From Clostridia bacterium (lineage in GTDB: Bacteria > Bacillota > Clostridia > Oscillospirales > Acutalibacteraceae): 32,000 nt of DNA. Of the stretch, positions 3,244 to 23,964 are shown piece by piece; the stretch's first letter is position 1, and every line of letters begins with the position of its first letter. A program made the position numbers and the translations under genes. The stretch spans positions 28,802-60,801 of the forward strand of contig JAGAMK010000003.1 of assembly GCA_017624735.1 (NCBI GenBank), in the 5' to 3' direction. The notes beneath the pieces are model-generated. The model saw only the letters and a list, made by a program, of their open reading frames with translations. It did no database searches and was not told where the DNA came from.

Positions 3244-4668
3244 TTATTTAAGAATTGATTTATAAAGTCTGATATATTCGTTCGCAGATTTGCCCCAGCT
3301 ATTATCACATTCCATAGCGCGTTTAACAAGAATGTTCCAGCCCTCTTTATTGGAGTAACCCTCGATGCCACGACGGATAGTATAAAGCATATCGTGTGCA
3401 TTATATGTTGAGAACGTGAAGCCGTTGCCCTCGTTGTCGCCACTATCCTTGATACTATCACGAAGACCACCTGTTTCGCGGACAATCGGAATTGTACCAT
3501 AACGAAGTGAAATCATCTGTGAAAGTCCGCAAGGCTCACTCTTACTTGGCATTAAGAACAAGTCACAGCCTGCATAGATTTTCTTTGAAAGTGATGGGAT
3601 AAAGCCAAGTTTAAGTCCCATTTTGTCAGGATATTTGTCAGCCATCTCCTTAAAGAAGCTTTCATACTGCCATTCACCTGAGCCAAGCACTACAAACTGA
3701 ACGTCGGTTGTTGCGAGCAATTCATCAAGGACTGCCTTAACAAGGTCAAGACCTTTATGACCAACAAGACGTGTAACCATACCAATCATCGGTACGTCCT
3801 CACGTACAGGAAGTGAGAAATATTCCTGCAATTTTGCCTTATTAATCTTTTTCTTGTCCTCAAAGTCTTCGGCTGTGTAATTAACCTCAATATCCTTGTC
3901 TGTTTCTGGGTTATAGAGAATCGTGTCGATACCATTGAGGATACCGCTTAATTTCCATGAACGCTGATTAAGAATTGGGTCAAGACCATGTGAATACCAA
4001 GGGTCAAGAATTTCGTTTGCGTATGATGGACTGACTGTTGTAACTCTGTCGGCACACTCAATAGCACCCTTCATAAAGTTGCAGTCACCATCATATTCAA
4101 GGAGTGATGCAGCACTTTCAGGAAGTCCCACAACGTCGCCAAGAAGGTCCATACCATAAGTACCCTGATACTGAATGTTATGAATTGTGAAAACGGTTTT
4201 GATGTTTTCATAACCTGGTCTTGTAGCATAAAGTGTATTGTAATAAACAGGAGTCAATGCAGACTGCCAATCGTTACAATGGATAATGTCAGGCTTGAAA
4301 TCAATGTGTGGGATAATTTCAAGAACTGCACGTGCAAAGAATGCAAAACGCTCTGCATCGTCATAATATCCGTAAAGTGTATCACGCTTGAAATAATACT
4401 GATTGTCGAGAAGATAGTAAATTACTCCACCTGCTTTTGCTTCAAAAATACCGCAGTACTGTCTTCTCCATGCAACAGGAACAGAAATACTTGTCACAAA
4501 TTTCATTGTGTCCTTAAGTTCCTGACTGATTGTGTCATATAAAGGCATTACAACCCTTGCGCCGATAAGTCTTTTGCGAAGTGCCTGTGGAAGGCTACCT
4601 GCAACATCACCTAAACCGCCACTTGCTTTAAAGGGAAGTGCCTCACTTGAAACGTATAAAACTTTCAT
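3244..4668 (-). CDS. glgA: glycogen synthase (ADP-glucose type)
   Basis: MKVLYVSSEALPFKASGGLGDVAGSLP... is the N-terminal K-x-GGL-x-DV motif. Length and C-terminal GT1 motifs fit (PSKSEPCGLSQM). Start trimmed to ATG 4668, because the 22 upstream codons of the track ORF translate a repeat element (..LRYAQNDYQ..). Confidence 0.92.
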   Translation of the reverse strand: MKVLYVSSEALPFKASGGLGDVAGSLPQALRKRLIGARVVMPLYDTISQELKDTMKFVTSISVPVAWRRQYCGIFEAKAGGVIYYLLDNQYYFKRDTLYGYYDDAERFAFFARAVLEIIPHIDFKPDIIHCNDWQSALTPVYYNTLYATRPGYENIKTVFTIHNIQYQGTYGMDLLGDVVGLPESAASLLEYDGDCNFMKGAIECADRVTTVSPSYANEILDPWYSHGLDPILNQRSWKLSGILNGIDTILYNPETDKDIEVNYTAEDFEDKKKINKAKLQEYFSLPVREDVPMIGMVTRLVGHKGLDLVKAVLDELLATTDVQFVVLGSGEWQYESFFKEMADKYPDKMGLKLGFIPSLSKKIYAGCDLFLMPSKSEPCGLSQMISLRYGTIPIVRETGGLRDSIKDSGDNEGNGFTFSTYNAHDMLYTIRRGIEGYSNKEGWNILVKRAMECDNSWGKSANEYIRLYKSILK

Positions 4669-4701
4669 ATAGTTTATTTGTTCCTTTCTGTATATTTGAT
4701 A

Positions 4702-4786
4702 GTCATTCTGAGCGTAGCGAAGAATCTCTCCCAAAATAGTATGTCAACTAACAGAGATTCTTCGTCGTTACACTCCTCAGAATGAC
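4702..4786. repeat. 85-nt hairpin repeat, copy E1 (GTCATTCTGAG...GAAGAATCTC // GAGATTCTTCG...CTCAGAATGAC), 33 nt upstream of the glgA start
   Basis: Near-identical arms at 14112-14195 and 28925-29010. Followed at 4790-4814 by a GCAGGC-GTAGAA-GCCTGC hairpin ending in CTCTAC. Confidence 0.85.
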
Positions 4787-4920
4787 ATTGCAGGCGTAGA
4801 AGCCTGCCTCTACGCGAACCACTAAATGCTTGAATTTTTGATGAAATTTTGCTTTTGAGACCGCAGGCTTACGAGTGTAAGTCAAGGGTGAAAAAGTGAA
4901 ATTTCGCAAAAAGACTGCAT

Positions 4921-6036
4921 TTAGATTACAATTTCCTTGCCGATGTAAACAGGGTAATTTTTTGCACCTGAGAGAGTCTTATTTGGTGTAATAACAACAC
5001 TCTTATCTGCAACAACGCAGTTGAGAGTAGCATTCTGTGCTACGAAAACATCCTGCATTACAATAGAATTCTTGACAACTGCACCTTTTTCAACTCTTAC
5101 GCCACGGAAAAGAATTGAATTTTCAACTGTGCCTTCAATGATACAACCGTCGGCAATAAGAGAATTCTTAACCTTTGAGCCAAGACCATAAATCGCAGGC
5201 ATATCGTCACGAACCTTTGTATAAACAGGTCTTTCTCTATTGAAAAGGTCGTCACAATTTTCAGGATTAAGAAGTTCCATATTAACATTGAAATAACTCT
5301 GTAATGACTCAATAACTGCTGAATATCCCTTTGCTTCGTAGCCATAAACTTTGAGATTATCAATATTTCTTTGAATAATATCGGACTCAAAATCCTTATA
5401 GTTAAGGCTGATTGCTTCGTTAATAAGTCTTTCAAGAAGGGCTTTTTTCATAAGAATTACATTGAGTGAGAAATTAACATCACCGTCAGTAACAGGAGAA
5501 ATTGAAACCTTTTCTGCCTTGTTATCTTCATCCAAATCAAGAACAATTACGTCTGTGAGATTTGGCATTTTTCCGTTTTTATAAACGATTGTCATATCGG
5601 CATTTTTCTCTGTATGGTAGTCCATAAGTGCCTCAATATCAAGGTTTATAACTGTGTTACAGTCTGTGAGAAGAACATATTCTTCATCTGAACGACTGAT
5701 AAAGCCCATGCTACCCTTTAAGGAAGCAAGTTTATCACGGTTTCCGCCTGTTTCGTTAGTTGAGAAAGGAGGAAGAATGAAAAGACCGTCATTTTTACGG
5801 GATAAATCCCAAGGCTTACCTGTACCAACATGGTCCATAAGTGACTGATAGTTACTCTTTGTTAGAACACCAACTTTTTCAATTCCGCTGTTTACCATAT
5901 TTGAAAGAGCAAAGTCAATAAGGCGATAACGACAAGCAAACGGAACTGAACCCATTGTACGGATACCTGTAAGTTCACTTACACATTCGTCATAAGCATT
6001 TGAGAAAACAATACCAACAATATTCTTACCTGTCAT
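4921..6036 (-). CDS. glgD: glucose-1-phosphate adenylyltransferase, regulatory subunit GlgD
   Basis: Nucleotidyl-transferase N-domain lacking the GGxGxRL loop (VFSNAYDE..MGSVPFACRYRLIDFALSNMVNSG), plus a left-handed beta-helix C-domain. Lies immediately downstream of glgC, as in Firmicutes glgCD. Confidence 0.88.
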   Translation of the reverse strand: MTGKNIVGIVFSNAYDECVSELTGIRTMGSVPFACRYRLIDFALSNMVNSGIEKVGVLTKSNYQSLMDHVGTGKPWDLSRKNDGLFILPPFSTNETGGNRDKLASLKGSMGFISRSDEEYVLLTDCNTVINLDIEALMDYHTEKNADMTIVYKNGKMPNLTDVIVLDLDEDNKAEKVSISPVTDGDVNFSLNVILMKKALLERLINEAISLNYKDFESDIIQRNIDNLKVYGYEAKGYSAVIESLQSYFNVNMELLNPENCDDLFNRERPVYTKVRDDMPAIYGLGSKVKNSLIADGCIIEGTVENSILFRGVRVEKGAVVKNSIVMQDVFVAQNATLNCVVADKSVVITPNKTLSGAKNYPVYIGKEIVI

Positions 6037-6037
6037 C

Positions 6038-7255
6038 TTATTTTGCCTCCTTTACTACATCTTCGCTGACCTGTGATTTTGGAGCAACTGCTGTGCCCTC
6101 GTGTACTGTAACACCTGCACCGACAACTGCAACGCCCCAGTCATCACGATTTGAGCAATCTTCAGGGCTTAAACCTACAATTGCACCCTCTTCAATAACT
6201 GCATTTTCTGCAACCATAGCATACTGAACAACTGCGCCCTTTTTAATAACTGTACCCGGCATAATGATTGAATATTTAACCTCTGCGCCCTCTTCAATAG
6301 TAACATCATTGAAAAGAATTGAGTAGTCAACATCACCATATACTCTTGAGCCCTCTGAAATCATTGAGTTCTGAACTTTTGCCTTTTCTGAAATATAGTG
6401 AGGTGGTGACGCAGGAGTTTTTGCATAAATTCTCCAGCTTGTATCGGATAAATCAAGGTCAACCTTAGGATTGAGAAGGTCAAGGTTTGCCTCCCAAAGG
6501 CTGTCGATTGTACCAACGTCTTTCCAATATCCGTCAAAGAGATATGCAAACATCTTTTCGCCATCTGCATGCATCTTTGGAATAACGTTCTTACCAAAGT
6601 CGTTGCTGGAATTAGGGTCATTTTCGTCGTCAATAAGATACTGACGAAGTTTGCTCCAAGTAAACACATAAACACCCATTGATGCCTTGTTACTTCTTGG
6701 ATTCTTTGGTTTTTCTTCAAATTCACGGATGGAATTGTCGTCATTGAGAATCATAAGACCGAATCGGCTTGCTTCTTCCCAAGAAACCTCAAGCATTGCG
6801 ATTGTACAAGCAGCACCCTTTTCCTTGTGGTACTCAAGCATCTTGTTGTAGTCCATCTTATAGATATGGTCACCTGAAAGAATCACAACATATTCAGGGT
6901 CATAACGGTCAATGAAATTGATGTTCTGATAAATTGCGTTTGCAGTACCCTTATACCATTCTGTACCCTTAATCTGCTGATAAGGTGAGAGAATATGGAC
7001 ACCGCCATTAGCACGGTCCAAATCCCAAGCCTGACCGTTGCCTATGTAATCATTAAGTTCAAGAGGTTGATACTGTGTTAAAACACCAACTGTAGAAATA
7101 CCGGAGTTTACACAGTTAGAAAGTGGGAAGTCGATAATTCTGTATTTACCGCCGTAAGGAACAGCAGGTTTAGCAATGTTCTTTGTAAGAATTCCAAGAC
7201 GGCTTCCCTGACCGCCTGCAAGAAGCATTGCAATACATTCTTGTTTTCTTGCCAT
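6038..7255 (-). CDS. glgC: glucose-1-phosphate adenylyltransferase
   Basis: [42 protein letters not shown] signature; 405 aa. Confidence 0.93.
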
Positions 7256-7291
7256 ATTTTTTCCTCCTTAAATGGATGATAGTATATTTTA

Positions 7292-9181
7292 TTATCTTGT
7301 CTTTTTAAGATAAATTGTTGACATTGGTGGTAAATCAAGAGAAATACTCTGTTCAAAACCGTGCATTGGAGTCTTTTCCCACTTGATTTTGTCTTTTTGC
7401 CCTTTTCCCGAGCCACCATAACACTCGTCATCGGAGTTAAAAACTACCTTGTAGTTAGCCCTTGCGGGAACACCGATTCTATATCCGTTACGTTCCACAG
7501 GAGTAAAGTTGCAAACCGCAATAATTTCCTTGCCTTTTTCGTCAATTCTGCGGAATGCGATTACTGAATTATCATTGTCGTCCGCTGAAATCCAAGAAAA
7601 TCCTTCCCATGAATGGTCAACCTGCCAGAGTGGAGCATTATCCTTGTAGAAATGGTTGATATCCTTAAAGTATTTCTGCAACTGACGGTGTGCATCATAC
7701 TGCAAGAGCAACCAGTCAAGCTCTTGCTTATAATTCCACTCAATAAACTGACCGAATTCGCTACCCATAAACATAAGTTTCTTTCCTGGATGAGCCATCA
7801 TATAACCCATAAAGGCACGAACACCTGCAAATTTTTCCTCATAAGTTCCGGGCATTTTATTGATGAGTGAGCATTTACCGTGCACAACCTCGTCGTGGGA
7901 GATTGGTAGGATAAAATTCTCTGAAAATGCGTAGAAGAATGAGAAAGTGATACAGCCGTGGTTACCTTTTCTGTAAAGTGGGTCCATTGAAAAATATCGA
8001 AGAATATCGTTCATCCAACCCATATTCCATTTGTAGTTAAATCCAAGACCACCCATAAATACAGGCTTTGTAACCATTGGCCATGCAGTACTTTCTTCTG
8101 CTATGAGCAAACTGCCGTGATAGTCACGGAAAACATTCATACTGAGTTTATTTAGGAATGCGACAGTTTCAAGGTTCTCAACCCCACCGTCTTTATTTGC
8201 TATCCAATGACCGTCGTCCCTGCCGTAGTTAAGATAAAGCATTGAAGCAACTGCGTCAACACGGAGACCGTCAATGTGGTATTTGTCAAGCCAGAACATA
8301 GCACTTGAAATAAGGAACGACTGAACCTCATTTCTGCCAAAGTCGAAAACCTTTGTTCCCCATTCAAGATGTTCACCTTTTCTGATATCTGCATATTCGT
8401 AACAAGGAGTCCCGTCAAACTCATAAAGTCCGTGAGCATCCTTTGGGAAATGAGCAGGTACCCAGTCAAGGATTACGCCTATATTATTCTTGTGGCACAT
8501 ATCAATGAGATACATCAGGTCGTCAGGAGTACCATATCGTGATGTGGCTGCAAAATAGCCTGTTACCTGATAACCCCACGAACCGTCAAAGGGAAATTCT
8601 GTAAGTGGCATAAACTCAATATGAGTATAACCCATTTCCTTAACATAAGGAATAAGCTCATCTGCCATTTTACGGTATGAATAGAAATTTCCGTCTTCAT
8701 ACTGCTTCCACGAACCGAAATGAACCTCGTAGATATTGACGGGCCTGTCATACTGTGCCCTTTCTCGTTTTGCCTTTTCCCATTTATCGTCAGTCCATTT
8801 GTATGAACCTAACTCATAATACTTTGTAGCATTGTCGGGACGAGTTTCCATATGGTAACCGTAAGGGTCACTCTTCATAAGTTTTCTGCCGTCTTGTGTG
8901 GTAATGCAGAATTTGTATGAATCATACAATTTTACGTTTTTAACATAAACTTCCCAGATGCCACCTACTGTGATACGTTCGGCCTTATCAGCCTCGTCAT
9001 TCCATCCGTTAAAGTCACCTGTGACACTAACCGAAACTGCATTCGGAGCCCAGGTTCTGAAAACAACTGTTTCATCATCCACACGATGAGCACCCATGTA
9101 TTCATAAGAACGTGCATTATTTCCTTGATGAAAAAGATACACAGGAACTTGTGCTTCAAAAGATTTTTGAACTTCCGCCAT
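7292..9181 (-). CDS. glgB: 1,4-alpha-glucan branching enzyme (GH13)
   Basis: GH13 catalytic motifs [34 protein letters not shown]; 629 aa; SD GAGGTGA. Confidence 0.93.
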
Positions 9182-9214
9182 TTCATCACCTCACATTTAT
9201 ACTTATACAGATAC

Positions 9215-9243
9215 ATTCTATCACTACAAAAAAATGATTTCAA
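9215..9243 (-). promoter_or_regulatory. candidate sigma-A promoter of the glg operon
   Basis: Minus strand TTGAAA (9243-9238), 17 nt, TGATAGAAT extended -10 (-10 hexamer at 9220-9215), about 35 nt upstream of the glgB ATG. A second candidate is TTGTAA (9312-9307), 17 nt, TATAAT (9289-9284). Confidence 0.5.
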
Positions 9244-9392
9244 GTGTTTTTTGCACAAAATAGTCAAACTGGTAACAAATTTCATTATAAGCATTTGTGC
9301 AGTTTGTTACAAAATATTACAGAAAAATCTCAAAACAAACAGAATATATCAGGAATGTTTATTATAAATGCGAGATTAGAAATTAAATTTAA

Positions 9393-9573
9393 ACAAATTG
9401 GAGTTTGTCGGGATGATTTACACAACACCAATACGATAGAAATGTAGGGGACGATGCCCACATCGTCCCGTTGTGGTTTATTTGTATACTTTGGTGCGGG
9501 ACGATGTGGGCATCGTCCCCTACAAATTGTGTTGAAATTAATAATTAAAAGTGCCCGACAAATTCAAATTTGT
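9393..9573. repeat. composite palindromic intergenic element, copy B (terminal inverted repeats ACAAATTGGAGTTTGTCGGG / CCCGACAAATTCAAATTTGT)
   Basis: The 20-nt termini are reverse complements at 18/20 positions. The interior carries two inverted copies of the self-palindromic unit GGGACGATG-NNNN-CATCGTCCCCTAC (9444-9469 and 9498-9523). Confidence 0.75.
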
Positions 9574-20235: not shown

Positions 20236-20260
20236 GTATGTGCGGGTAATACTGGCTTCT

Positions 20261-20326
20261 CCCTGAGGAAAAGCTGTCACGAAGTAACTGATGAGGTGTT
20301 GTAGGGACAGGTCTCCGTGCCTGTCC
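20261..20326. repeat. degenerate GC-rich palindromic repeat modules
   Basis: CTGAGGAA-N5-GTCACGAAG resembles the distal arm of the 85-nt hairpin family. The GGACAGG-TCTCCGTG-CCTGTCC hairpin is preceded by GTAG (reverse complement = hairpin + CCCTAC). Confidence 0.55.
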
Positions 20327-20338
20327 GAAAATAAGGCA

Positions 20339-20664
20339 ACAAAAAAATCCCACCGAGGGAATCAAGGGTGTCTCACATAGGAATTTAATAGGTTTTAATC
20401 CTATTCTTTCCGTTAATACTTCACGAAAAAACCCCACAAGGCATTAGCCTTGTGGGGTTTTTGTCATTTTGTCTAAACGAAAATTATATGGATTAAAACT
20501 GCCTTGCACCTTAAACCTTATAAGTTTGGATACAGAGCAAGGCATAAATGTGAAGGAACCCTGACGGGTTTCAAGCATTTTAACGATGCTCTGTGCCAAA
20601 ATCATTGGTTTAAGGCTGTTAAATCCCTATGCGAGACACCCTTTTCGGTGGGTAATTTTTTTGT
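20339..20664. other. ~325-bp non-coding element bounded by ~60-bp imperfect inverted repeats. Candidates: MITE, structured RNA, or invertible segment.
   Basis: 20339-20401 is the imperfect reverse complement of 20607-20664. The interior contains a bidirectional terminator and a ~140-nt nested hairpin (20490-20626). There is no SD-preceded ORF. Confidence 0.6.
20426..20462. terminator. bidirectional intrinsic terminator shared by the phage module (+) and the MFS gene (-)
   Basis: A6-CCCCACAAGG-CATTAG-CCTTGTGGGG-T5: a 10-bp GC-rich stem. Confidence 0.85.
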
Positions 20665-20670
20665 ATTTAA

Positions 20671-22542
20671 TTAGTCGGCATTTTCTTCTTCAATCTTATC
20701 AACGATTTCCTGTGGGATTGCCTCACCATGTTTAACGAAAAGTATCATCAAAATACCTAGAGCGAAGCAAACCGGGCTATAATAGAACAAGGACATATAT
20801 GTTCCCGCAAACATTCGGATAAAGCCATAGAGGATTGGAGAAGCAATCTGTGCTGAGAATGTTGCTGTGTAGTAGTAGCCTGTGAATGTACCAACCTTGT
20901 CAATACCACCGATTTCAAGAACAAGTGGTAATGTGTTAACTGTGATGAACATATTTGCAGCACCACCAAGGATAAGAACAGGATAAATAAGAACACCTAA
21001 AATCTTTGTAACATTATTTACAGATTCGTTAACTGTTGCCATTGCTTTTACAAAGGTTTCGTTTCCTTCTGTGCCATAAACCTCACCTGCAACCTTTATG
21101 ATATCATCATAAACTGTTGCACCTGCATTTTCAGCAAGATATGCATCGAATTCAGCATACGCATTTGCTTCTGCACCGGTCTCAAGATAAGCAACGTATC
21201 CGTCCATTGTGAGAAGCTTAACCTCTGTATTGTTTGCCTTTGCTTCCTCTGAAAGAGCAGCATTGAACTCGTTCATCTGATTATCAATAGCAATATATGC
21301 ATTATTTGCTTTAACATATTTACCTATTGTAAGATTCTGATTTCCAAGCATTACCATAAATACTCCGAAGAAAACTACAAAGGCAGCAAGGAAGATTGAA
21401 AGACCCATAACAATTGTCTTTTTTCTACCGATTTTTGTACCCATTTTACCTGCAGGAATTGCTGCAACAGCGGAGCAAACTGCAAAAATAAGCATAATGA
21501 AGGTTGCTTCTGAAGCAATCATATGAAGAATTTCCTGTGCGAACAATGAGAAGAAAGTTGTAATCGCATTTGCACCGCAGAAAAGGAAGAATAAGCAACC
21601 AAGCATAAAGAGAAGACTCTTTCTTTCGCCCTTTGAAAGCTTAACTGCTTTTCTTGCAGCTTTTTCAGCCTTTGCAGCAGCTTTTTCGGCTTCTCTCTTT
21701 GCCTTTGCATCTGCATAAGCATTAGCCTCAGCCTTAACAGCAACTCTTGAATCAGGCTCCTTAACAAAGAAACGAACAATGAGCATACCGATAATCATAA
21801 CAGCTGAACCGATTGCGAAAACATAAGGGAAGGAAATCTGTTCGTTTGCCTTAATCTGCTCTGATGAGAAGCCTGTGAAAAGACCACAGAGGATAATTGC
21901 AAGAGTACCCGCAACCATACCAACAGCACTACCAACACCACCCATAAGGTTGATGATTGCATTACCCTCTGAACGGAGATGTGGCGGAGTAAGGTCAGGC
22001 ATCAATGCAACTGCAGGAGCACGCCAGAGTGACATTGAGAAAACGAAAAGAATAACTGTAATCATTGTTGCAGGAAGAGTCCATGTTCCCTTAACATTGA
22101 GAGCCACCAACGGAATAAGCACAAAAAGAAGTGCTGAAATCGGAGCAACACCAACAATGAAAGGACGACGTTTACCAAGCTTTGAATGACAGTTATCTGA
22201 AAGCTTACCGAATGCAGGTTGGAAGATAACGCCGAAGATGTTATCGAAGGTCATAATAAAACCGATAAATAAAGGTACAAGTGTAAATCCACCTGTAGCG
22301 GAAACTGTGCTTTCACCCTGAGAAGCAGCAAAATCGCCAATCCATGGGATTGCTTTTGCTAAGCCTTTACTGAGAGAGTCAATCCATGCACTTTCTGAAA
22401 GAATTTTGTTAAGAATTCTTGTTACATATGGGTCATAAATTGCCCATGCGATTGATGTTGTGAGAAAAGCGAAACCTGTGATAATGGTATGCCATACGTG
22501 GAGCTTACCATTTTTCTCGCAAAAGAGTTCTTGTTTGCTCAT
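20671..22542 (-). CDS. MFS transporter, GPH/SLC45-like sugar:cation symporter family, with large insertions
   Basis: GKLSDNCHSKLGKRRPF loop motif (G-x-LSD-x...G-RRPF type) and multiple TM segments. 623 aa, which is long for the family. Confidence 0.8.
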   Translation of the reverse strand: MSKQELFCEKNGKLHVWHTIITGFAFLTTSIAWAIYDPYVTRILNKILSESAWIDSLSKGLAKAIPWIGDFAASQGESTVSATGGFTLVPLFIGFIMTFDNIFGVIFQPAFGKLSDNCHSKLGKRRPFIVGVAPISALLFVLIPLVALNVKGTWTLPATMITVILFVFSMSLWRAPAVALMPDLTPPHLRSEGNAIINLMGGVGSAVGMVAGTLAIILCGLFTGFSSEQIKANEQISFPYVFAIGSAVMIIGMLIVRFFVKEPDSRVAVKAEANAYADAKAKREAEKAAAKAEKAARKAVKLSKGERKSLLFMLGCLFFLFCGANAITTFFSLFAQEILHMIASEATFIMLIFAVCSAVAAIPAGKMGTKIGRKKTIVMGLSIFLAAFVVFFGVFMVMLGNQNLTIGKYVKANNAYIAIDNQMNEFNAALSEEAKANNTEVKLLTMDGYVAYLETGAEANAYAEFDAYLAENAGATVYDDIIKVAGEVYGTEGNETFVKAMATVNESVNNVTKILGVLIYPVLILGGAANMFITVNTLPLVLEIGGIDKVGTFTGYYYTATFSAQIASPILYGFIRMFAGTYMSLFYYSPVCFALGILMILFVKHGEAIPQEIVDKIEEENAD

Positions 22543-23935: not shown

Positions 23936-23964
23936 GAAAAAGGCATAACCCGAAGATTATGCCT
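23936..23964 (-). terminator. intrinsic terminator after htrA
   Basis: AGGCATAA-N8-TTATGCCT hairpin followed on the minus strand by TTTTTC. Confidence 0.7.

Follow-up and report, generated by a model that had tools for sequence, protein, structure and literature searches.

Between a module of phage-head genes and the convergent gene of a major facilitator superfamily (MFS) transporter, contig JAGAMK010000003.1 of the Clostridia bacterium assembly GCA_017624735.1 carries a non-coding, highly self-complementary segment of about 325 bp, which raises the question of whether it is a structured RNA, a site serving its neighbours, or a mobile insertion. The question was addressed within a 32,000-nucleotide stretch of this contig (hereafter the window, to which positions refer unless a locus is named), a chromosomal stretch derived from an 81-kb metagenome scaffold. 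A preliminary description, made from the letters of the window only, had offered four candidates, namely a MITE (miniature inverted-repeat transposable element), a structured RNA derived from a 3' untranslated region (3'UTR), an invertible segment, and a cis-acting site of the capsid module. The first is favoured by our analysis: we put at roughly 0.8 the probability that 20365-20642 is one copy of a 278-bp, non-coding and non-autonomous MITE-like element, inserted in the apical loop of the bidirectional terminator of the MFS gene and the head operon.

A host terminator in two halves and the element between them

The self-complementarity was confirmed at the positions originally given. A repeat search of the window returned an inverted-repeat pair of 35 nt with 83% complementarity (I1, 20364-20398 with 20609-20643), together with two pairs, I3 and I10, that span the outer arm blocks (ACAAAAAAAT with ATTTTTTTGT and CCCACCGA with TCGGTGGG). 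The arm core AAGGGTGTCTCNCATAGG occurred twice in 32 kb, compared with 0.05 expected occurrences. Folding of 20335-20670 yielded -151.6 kcal/mol for the plus strand and -154.9 kcal/mol for the minus strand, corresponding to z-scores of -15.2 and -16.2 relative to shuffled sequences. The arms are not, however, the single unit that had been described. Judged by sequence comparison, they are composite, with the outer ~21 bp on each side representing the two halves of a host terminator and the inner 27 bp representing the terminal inverted repeats of the element.

This assignment was derived from the orthologous place in relatives, where the hairpin is uninterrupted, both in the conspecific strain L016 (AAAAAAATCCCACCGGAGGAATTTCCTTCGGTGGGTAATTTTT) and in L006, whose MFS is 93% identical (ACAAAAAATCCCACCGAGGGGAATTCCCTCGGTGGGTAATTTTTTG). 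The window contains halves that match it at 20339-20359 and 20645-20664, with ACAAAAAAATCCCACCGAGGG at 20339-20359 and CGGTGGGTAATTTTTTTGT at 20646-20664, which are thus ~280 bp apart, whereas in L016 they are joined into one hairpin. There, only 51 nt separate the last head gene from the MFS gene, and this spacer is made up of one bidirectional terminator, which is common to the head-gene operon on the plus strand and the MFS gene on the minus strand. Identity between L016 and the window picks up again at 20644, and the right arm ends close to the MFS stop codon at the distance first reported (Table 1).

The intervening segment was delimited by alignment with the other copies described below, and a profile built from nine copies matched the window copy with an E-value of 1e-96 in nhmmer. 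Its subterminal sequences are GATTTAACAGCC and GGATTAAAACCTATTAAATC. The consensus structure was modelled as a closed Y-shaped palindrome, in which the ends would pair as a closing stem (P1), with a rod-like hairpin (P2) and a further domain (P3) branching off. A rod had previously been placed at 20490-20626; it does exist, but the limits supported by covariation are narrower. Likewise, the alternative pairing proposed for GGATTAAAAC (20490-20499) was found as repeat pair I11, with GTTTTAATCC (20392-20401) as the partner, but the consensus assigns GGATTAAAAC to P3 as a separate, invariant stem. The bidirectional terminator noticed between the arms was recovered by the terminator scan as a perfect hairpin. 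It carries a T6 tract on the minus strand and a T5 tract on the plus strand, so that it is predicted to act in both directions, and it is kept in eight of the nine copies, T5-6 tract included, being absent from L016 only.

No conserved open reading frame (ORF) was found in the element: the sole ORF common to several copies (MILAQ...) is interrupted by a stop in L011 and lacks its start codon in L021, and was rejected as a gene on these grounds. A promoter scan, complemented by inspection, revealed no convincing sigma-70-like promoter inside the element and no junction promoter across abutted ends. The possibility that the rod or the terminator are separate nested insertions was also rejected, because all modules occur together in eight of the nine copies and the one deviation is a secondary deletion. 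This concerns the L016 copy (1365-1588 of that locus), which lacks a 54-nt block holding the internal terminator, with the deletion lying between two TTTTCG direct repeats; it is taken as a secondary microhomology event because its 99%-identical twin, L024, is intact.

Table 1. Positions of the element, its parts and neighbouring features in the window (columns are those of the nine-copy alignment).
Feature	Positions	Strand	Remarks
Mobile element, 278 bp	20365..20642	-	Reference orientation is the window minus strand, AGGGTGTCTC...GAGACACCCT; aligns end to end with other copies, similarity ceasing at both ends
Terminal inverted repeat, 5' arm (element orientation)	20616..20642	-	Columns 1-27; half of closing stem P1; pairs with 20365-20391
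Terminal inverted repeat, 3' arm	20365..20391	-	Columns 253-279; other half of P1
P2, rod-like hairpin	20509..20615	-	Columns 28-134; 107 nt; five helices; apical loop GUCA
Mini-hairpin	20500-20508		Columns 135-143
P3 domain	20392..20499	-	Stem 20476-20499 with 20392-20414 (columns 144-167 with 230-252), GTTTTAATCC.../...GGATTAAAAC; encloses the internal terminator
Internal intrinsic terminator	20423..20467	-	Columns 176-221; perfect 16-bp stem 20427-20462; terminator scan
Split host terminator, left half	20339..20364	.	A-run ACAAAAAAAT, stem half CCCACCGAGGG, loop remnant AATCA
Split host terminator, right half	20643..20664	.	TTTCGGTGGG, then TAATTTTTTTGT; ends 6 nt from the MFS stop codon
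Empty target site, HtrA terminator hairpin	23942..23963	-	GGCATAATC-TT-CGGGTTATGCC, uninterrupted GGCATAATCTTCGGGTTATGCCTTTTTC; dinucleotide duplicated in L016 is 23953-23954
Head-only phage module	14228-20235	+	TerS, TerL, portal, 317-aa phrog_16951 protein, major head protein, three small ORFs
MFS transporter gene	20671..22542	-	Pfam MFS_1 7e-29; convergent to the head module; its terminator is hit by the element

Further copies, strain-level mobility and the insertion target

The first further copy was obtained with a GTDB-wide DNA scan using a pattern of the ends, whose sole hit was a sheep-colon Clostridia metagenome-assembled genome (L011), with 90% identity along 278 bp that include both ends as well as the rod and the internal terminator. 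The L016 copy was located by local BLAST. Six further gene calls, retrieved by a protein query with the spurious MILAQ... ORF inside the element, turned out to be copies, and their contigs were then fetched. In total, nine copies at eight loci were collected, including that of the window, with the others residing in assemblies of uncultured Clostridia (L011, L016, L018/L019, L020, L021, L022, L023 and L024). All are 278-279 bp long except that of L016 (224 bp), and pairwise identities range from 79 to 99%. The genes beside the other copies are unrelated and include spo0A, htrA, rpsR, a DAHP synthase gene and a dockerin gene. In L011, the flanks are unrelated to those of the window, and the copy again lies inside a hairpin bordered by an A-run and a T-run.

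Searches with the nine-copy profile in nhmmer detected no further or degenerate copies in the ~200 kb of fetched loci. The window and L022 copies, run with blastn against phage (50,697 records) and plasmid collections, returned nothing relevant, and four pattern scans of IMG/VR gave nothing or chance matches (L012, L013). A metagenome scan with TTAACGGAAAGAATAGGATT produced only two chance coding matches (L014, L015) and missed the JGI copies L022 and L023, because this sequence covers a position later found to be variable (GAAAG[A/G/T]ATAGG).

Evidence for mobility was provided by the comparison of the window with L016, whose DNA is 97.8% identical in the htrA, DUF2804 and MFS genes. The two strains are in reciprocal states: the MFS site is empty and the HtrA site filled in L016, whereas the MFS site is filled and the HtrA site empty in the window. 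At the HtrA site, between htrA and the DUF2804 gene, L016 reads GGCATAACCTT-element-TTCGGGTTGTGCC (with the longer right flank, GGCATAACCTT-element-TTCGGGTTGTGCCTTTTTC), while the window has the uninterrupted hairpin, with flanking DNA that is 97.7-97.8% identical. At this clean pair of filled (L016) and empty (window) sites, the TT of the CTTCGG loop is duplicated. As read from the two aligned loci, the HtrA terminator is the site of a strain-level insertion polymorphism. The eight loci, the reciprocal sites in two conspecific strains, the 2-bp duplication and the lack of an ORF together support the first of the four candidates.

Independent assemblies of community data are consistent with this. 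Logan contigs (L002, L003, L005) end at 20485 in two samples and start at 20602, and the last bases specific to the window copy, 20455 (G; A in most copies) and 20632 (C; T in most), are each exactly 30 nt from a break. With a Logan k-mer size that we take to be k=31, this distance equals k-1, and on that assumption the breaks support the presence of a multi-copy family in the source community. An inversion or deletion variant was rejected as their cause, given that a spacing of 30 nt from copy-specific bases is what other copies would produce. This observation also bears on the candidate of an invertible, phase-variable segment, for which the inverted repeats of at least 27 bp around a terminator-containing segment would speak. 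No recombinase gene was found nearby in the window. With a bidirectional internal terminator, inversion would change little; other copies, rather than two orientations, account for the contig breaks, and the insertion polymorphism explains the data. We thus found nothing in support of this proposal and deem it very improbable. An assembly artefact was likewise considered as an explanation and received no support.

For the seven sites with coherent flanks, the empty sites were reconstructed computationally. Six of these insertions, those of the window, L011, L016, L018, L020 and L022, are in the loop of a terminator consisting of an A-run, a hairpin and a T-run. Because the spacers minus the element measure only ~40-180 nt and the loops 3-10 nt, this distribution is far from random. 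The target dinucleotide TT is duplicated around the L016 copy; TT likewise flanks the L020, L022 and L021 copies, and AA(A) flanks that of L011. An RNA-guided choice of target of the IS110 bridge-RNA kind was rejected, since copies with identical interiors and ends occupy unrelated targets. In L023 (135-412) and L024 (1208-1485), left and right flanks do not match each other or make one hairpin, so that the question of a duplication does not arise. L023 shares its left flank and left end with the L011 (spo0A) locus, and its right end is of another subtype; either assembly has joined different loci at the repeat in these short contigs, or recombination takes place between copies.

Covariation, conservation and competing readings

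The covariation analysis called for in the preliminary description was performed on the nine-copy alignment, in which 96.5% of the cells are paired in the consensus structure. Changes on both sides were observed for 21 pairs, compared with 8.7 +/- 1.9 in shuffles (0/500 reached 21) and 2-7 in slid controls. They are distributed over P1 (12 of 26 pairs, with 93% of cells paired and the ends pairing in 9/9 copies), the P2 rod (six pairs, for example CCTTAAACC/GGTTTAAGG versus CCTTAAATC/GATTTAAGG and GAAACCC/GGGTTCC versus GAAATCC/GGATTCC) and the stem of the internal terminator (three pairs). P3 behaves differently: of its 21 pairs, with 98% of cells paired, none is changed on both sides and 17 never vary, so that the sequence itself must be constrained, and its block GCAGTTTTAATCCATATAATTTTCG is invariant in eight of the nine copies. 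The terminator loop of 4-5 nt, by contrast, differs in nearly every copy; unconstrained sequence has thus diverged strongly, and purifying selection acts on the interior. On the minus strand of the window, the ratio of G.U to A.C cells is 49:14 overall, 18:6 for the rod and 25:2 for P3 and terminator combined, compared with 6:6 in P1; within the terminator stem, a G.U pair is present at columns 190/208 in six copies. This bias implies that the rod and terminator look selected as RNA, or as one DNA strand, in the MFS sense, while the ends have no strand bias.

Several observations weigh against a conventional MITE. Conservation is lowest in the outer 18 bp at either end (columns 1-18 and 262-279; window 20625-20642 and 20365-20382), which are nevertheless always complementary, with identities between the end subtypes (GGGGTCTCTCAATTAGGG, AGGGTGTCTCACATAGGG, CGGCACACTCGCAAAGGA and GGGGAGTGTAAAACAGAG) of 50-60%, compared with 84-90% in the interior. 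A DDE transposase that reads sequence would normally impose the reverse, and the MITE model leaves the pattern unexplained. Neither a transposase nor a longer autonomous relative was found: none is encoded near the copies in the fetched loci, and the GTDB-wide scan with one pattern of the ends returned only another MITE copy and no autonomous insertion sequence (IS). With regard to the junctions, the window copy has no duplication (minus-strand flanks AA and TG) and that of L018 has a single T only, while the L021 insertion is at the 3' foot of the hairpin instead of the loop. The right stem half of the host terminator in the window is without the expected CCC, so that this junction is not pristine; either the window junctions have decayed, or insertion was imprecise. 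Finally, copies were ascertained via ORF calls, and the loop preference could reflect selection after insertion rather than targeting.

The pairing pattern could instead point to a hairpin-dependent, single-strand element of the kind represented by REPINs, the doublets of repetitive extragenic palindromic (REP) sequences, or by palindrome-associated transposable elements (PATEs) of IS200/IS605, in which an HUH (Y1) transposase would read one folded strand of single-stranded DNA and stems would be conserved as its substrate. Compensatory evolution in all variable stems, including ends that vary in sequence and always pair, would follow naturally, as would the excess of G.T-type over A.C pairs on one strand. 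The element folds stably as DNA (-77 kcal/mol, z -11.7), and hairpin-loop targets suggest single-stranded or extruded DNA. However, HUH single-strand transposition yields no target duplication, contrary to the clean filled/empty pair, and no conserved target of 4-5 nt is present 5' of either end (flanks GAAA, CAAA, CCTT, GCTT and GCAT). Moreover, the ends are true inverted repeats rather than two subterminal hairpins on the same strand, and the balanced ratio in P1 leaves them without strand bias. We accordingly rate such a single-strand element as quite unlikely.

A second reading of the same data is that the interior is primarily a functional RNA gene on the minus strand, a small RNA or 3'UTR module of ~190-220 nt comprising rod and terminator, which is mobile only incidentally and is kept by the host or the element for a role of the RNA, such as transcript stabilisation, insulation or regulation. 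It would explain the much stronger conservation of the interior compared with the terminator loop, which looks neutral, and the outer stems, and is in agreement with the minus-strand G.U bias of rod, P3 and terminator, as well as with the T6 tract and the terminator wobble pairs on that strand. Furthermore, at six of the eight loci the minus-type strand is co-directional with a neighbouring gene that points its 3' end at the element; four of these six, however, lie between convergent genes, where either orientation would match. Against this reading, the scan revealed no promoter-like site within the element, there is no Rfam match at threshold, and the terminator block was lost from L016. In addition, P1 and P3 need sequence 3' of the terminator and so cannot form in the terminated RNA, yet they are conserved or covarying. 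This reading is therefore considered unlikely, and the MITE-like insertion is retained as the preferred one.

Known systems, gene neighbourhood and significance

With 278 bp and no transposase ORF, 27-bp terminal inverted repeats, a TT duplication, dispersed copies, and filled and empty sites, the element displays several hallmarks of a MITE. Bacterial MITEs and repeats, including Correia elements (Neisseria), RUP (S. pneumoniae), bcr1 (B. cereus group) and Nezha (cyanobacteria), are treated in two reviews (PMC3184786, PMC10969869), according to which these MITEs are likewise small, devoid of a transposase and bounded by terminal inverted repeats, and form a very stable stem-loop fold that may supply terminator signals. 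Short target duplications, dispersed intergenic copies and filled/empty sites in close relatives are further shared traits. Unlike in MITEs, the ends of the element are its least conserved part, and both sequence and structure of its interior are strongly conserved; insertion is at the apex of a terminator hairpin of any sequence and not at a short motif such as TA; and no parent IS with matching ends is known. SPRITE, also a Firmicute repeat with a terminator-like hairpin near gene 3' ends (PMC3184786, PMC10969869), is only ~105 bp long and essentially is that hairpin, whereas the terminator of the element is one module of a larger structure entering pre-existing terminators.

Among palindrome-targeting insertion sequences, IS1630 is reported in the 1999 paper of Calcutt to hit repeats that are terminator-like. 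IS1630, an IS30-type element of Mycoplasma fermentans, targets inverted repeats of variable sequence, as the title of that paper states (Calcutt 1999, cited in PMC2853133 and PMC3317919). IS30 itself inserts at the two central base pairs of a hot spot that is nearly palindromic; its points of attack on the target strands are 2 bp from each other, and it leaves 2-bp direct repeats (PMC9333248). The element shares with IS30 the 2-bp duplication at the centre of a palindromic target, as seen in the L016/window pair. It differs in encoding no transposase, in ends that, so far, are matched to no IS30-family member, and in targets that are not sequence-specific as IS30 hot spots are. IS1630 duplicates a whole palindrome of 19-26 bp, whereas the element splits its palindrome and duplicates 2 bp.

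REPINs, which are mobilised by the transposase RAYT, and the PATEs resemble the element in being non-coding, hairpin-forming and located downstream of genes. For REPINs, the 2011 work of Bertels and Rainey is said to describe paired changes that keep the long hairpin intact, and the hairpin of the element is similarly kept by paired changes (21 pairs; 0/500 shuffles). These systems produce no target duplication and need a conserved tetranucleotide, whereas the element has the TT duplication and flanks without a conserved motif of 4-5 nt; it is also larger, at 278 bp, with a three-way architecture. Group IIC introns use intrinsic terminator stem-loops as insertion landmarks. They are, however, ribozymes of at least 700 nt that carry a reverse transcriptase ORF or have domains V and VI that can be recognised, and their insertion site is downstream of the hairpin instead of in its loop; the Rfam scan gave no group II intron signal. 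An attC-targeting lineage of these introns is among the subjects of PMC3001079.

In agreement with the preliminary description, which had recognised no Rfam family, a scan of the whole window at gathering thresholds returned only a tRNA. Under permissive settings, the best match was LOOT (RF03000), at 34.9 bits against a gathering threshold of 46.4, with rli38 and His leader also below threshold; all of these were terminator-driven. On the basis of these comparisons, the element appears to be a previously undescribed repeat family, matched by nothing in Rfam, phage, plasmid or IMG/VR data.

The gene order of the window comprises glgB/C/D/A, two ABC exporters, MarR, the head-only phage module, the MFS gene, DUF2804, HtrA and a two-component system. 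The head module has no genes for tail, lysis, integrase or replication nearby and is syntenic in relatives whose MFS is 86-99% identical (L016, L007, L008 and L017). In DNA identity it falls ~10 points below the host genes on its flanks (87.5% versus 97.8% for L016; 71.6% versus 82% for L007), and the break in identity between head module and host genes falls at the shared terminator; the module could be a domesticated or often-exchanged capsid island similar to gene transfer agents or phage-inducible chromosomal islands. A stretch of ~100 nt between the last head gene and the split terminator (20236-20338) includes a hairpin, GGGACAGG...CCTGTCC (20305-20328); it is absent from the conspecific L016, and a second copy was not found among the fetched loci. 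In L008, the far side of the MFS gene (3251-9532) is replaced by a cluster of integrase, MobA/MobL, TnpV and PadR genes resembling an integrative mobilisable element, which shows that the neighbourhood is a rearrangement hot spot. At the left of the window, a gene of at least 641 codons on the minus strand (1-1925) runs off the end, and positions 2768-2851 encode a tRNA-Leu(GAG).

The remaining candidate, a site such as pac, cos, att or an origin that serves the head module in cis, would account for the position directly downstream of the last head gene, and this position is all that speaks for it. The element is not part of the module, because in L016, L007, L008 and L017 the module stands beside the MFS gene without it; in the latter three, the spacers measure 56, 223 and 210 nt and are unrelated to the element. 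The expectation that it would always follow homologous capsid modules thus failed in these four relatives. Conversely, head genes are near none of the other seven loci, and the element has no match in the phage records or IMG/VR. This candidate is regarded as refuted, with an extremely low residual probability.

For the MITE-like element, the following mechanism is proposed. A transposase supplied in trans would cut terminator palindromes at their apex, with the cuts in the two strands offset by 2 nt; the target could be in the form of a cruciform or a hairpin loop. By analogy, the behaviour of the mobilising enzyme resembles that of the IS30 family, although the enzyme family is a lead and not a result. 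Because the ends of the element pair, they would lengthen the host stem through P1 instead of destroying the hairpin, and both flanking transcription units would still be terminated by the bidirectional terminator of the element, so that insertion would be nearly neutral for both. We infer that MFS transcripts end at the internal terminator, where they would stop at ~20421-20426 with a 3'UTR of ~245 nt containing the rod, while head-operon transcripts would stop just past 20462. The 3'UTR candidate thus survives as a predicted consequence of insertion and not as an RNA specific to the MFS gene. The conserved interior, with its invariant P3 and covarying rod, may be needed in cis for mobilisation, may act as a minus-strand RNA, or both.

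A more far-reaching possibility, which we regard as doubtful though not negligible, is that the element is defined by structure, with its ends read as a helix and not as sequence. It is suggested by the outer 18 bp, which drift but pair, by the RNA-like Y core with its one-strand G.U bias, and by a target that is the apical loop of any terminator. If true, a hairpin-to-hairpin route of insertion, specific for cruciforms or loops, or an RNA-mediated one would be implied, which is undescribed for bacterial repeats; the role of the built-in terminator would be to render insertion into terminators safe, and the element would become considerably more interesting.

Bacterial MITEs, terminator-like repeats such as SPRITE and palindrome-targeting insertion sequences are already known; new here is the combination of terminator-loop targeting, a built-in terminator and reversed conservation. 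Variable but complementary ends around a conserved interior are the inverse of the textbook MITE and call for a mechanistic explanation, possibly providing a lead to enzymes that recognise DNA palindromes by shape. At this locus, a striking signal of the structured-RNA kind was resolved into mobile DNA plus a split host terminator. For uncultured gut Clostridia, the family would represent a new, near-neutral parasite that settles in terminator loops with a terminator of its own, and whose copies would give rise to strain-level polymorphisms, long structured 3'UTRs on host genes and predictable breaks in short-read assemblies.

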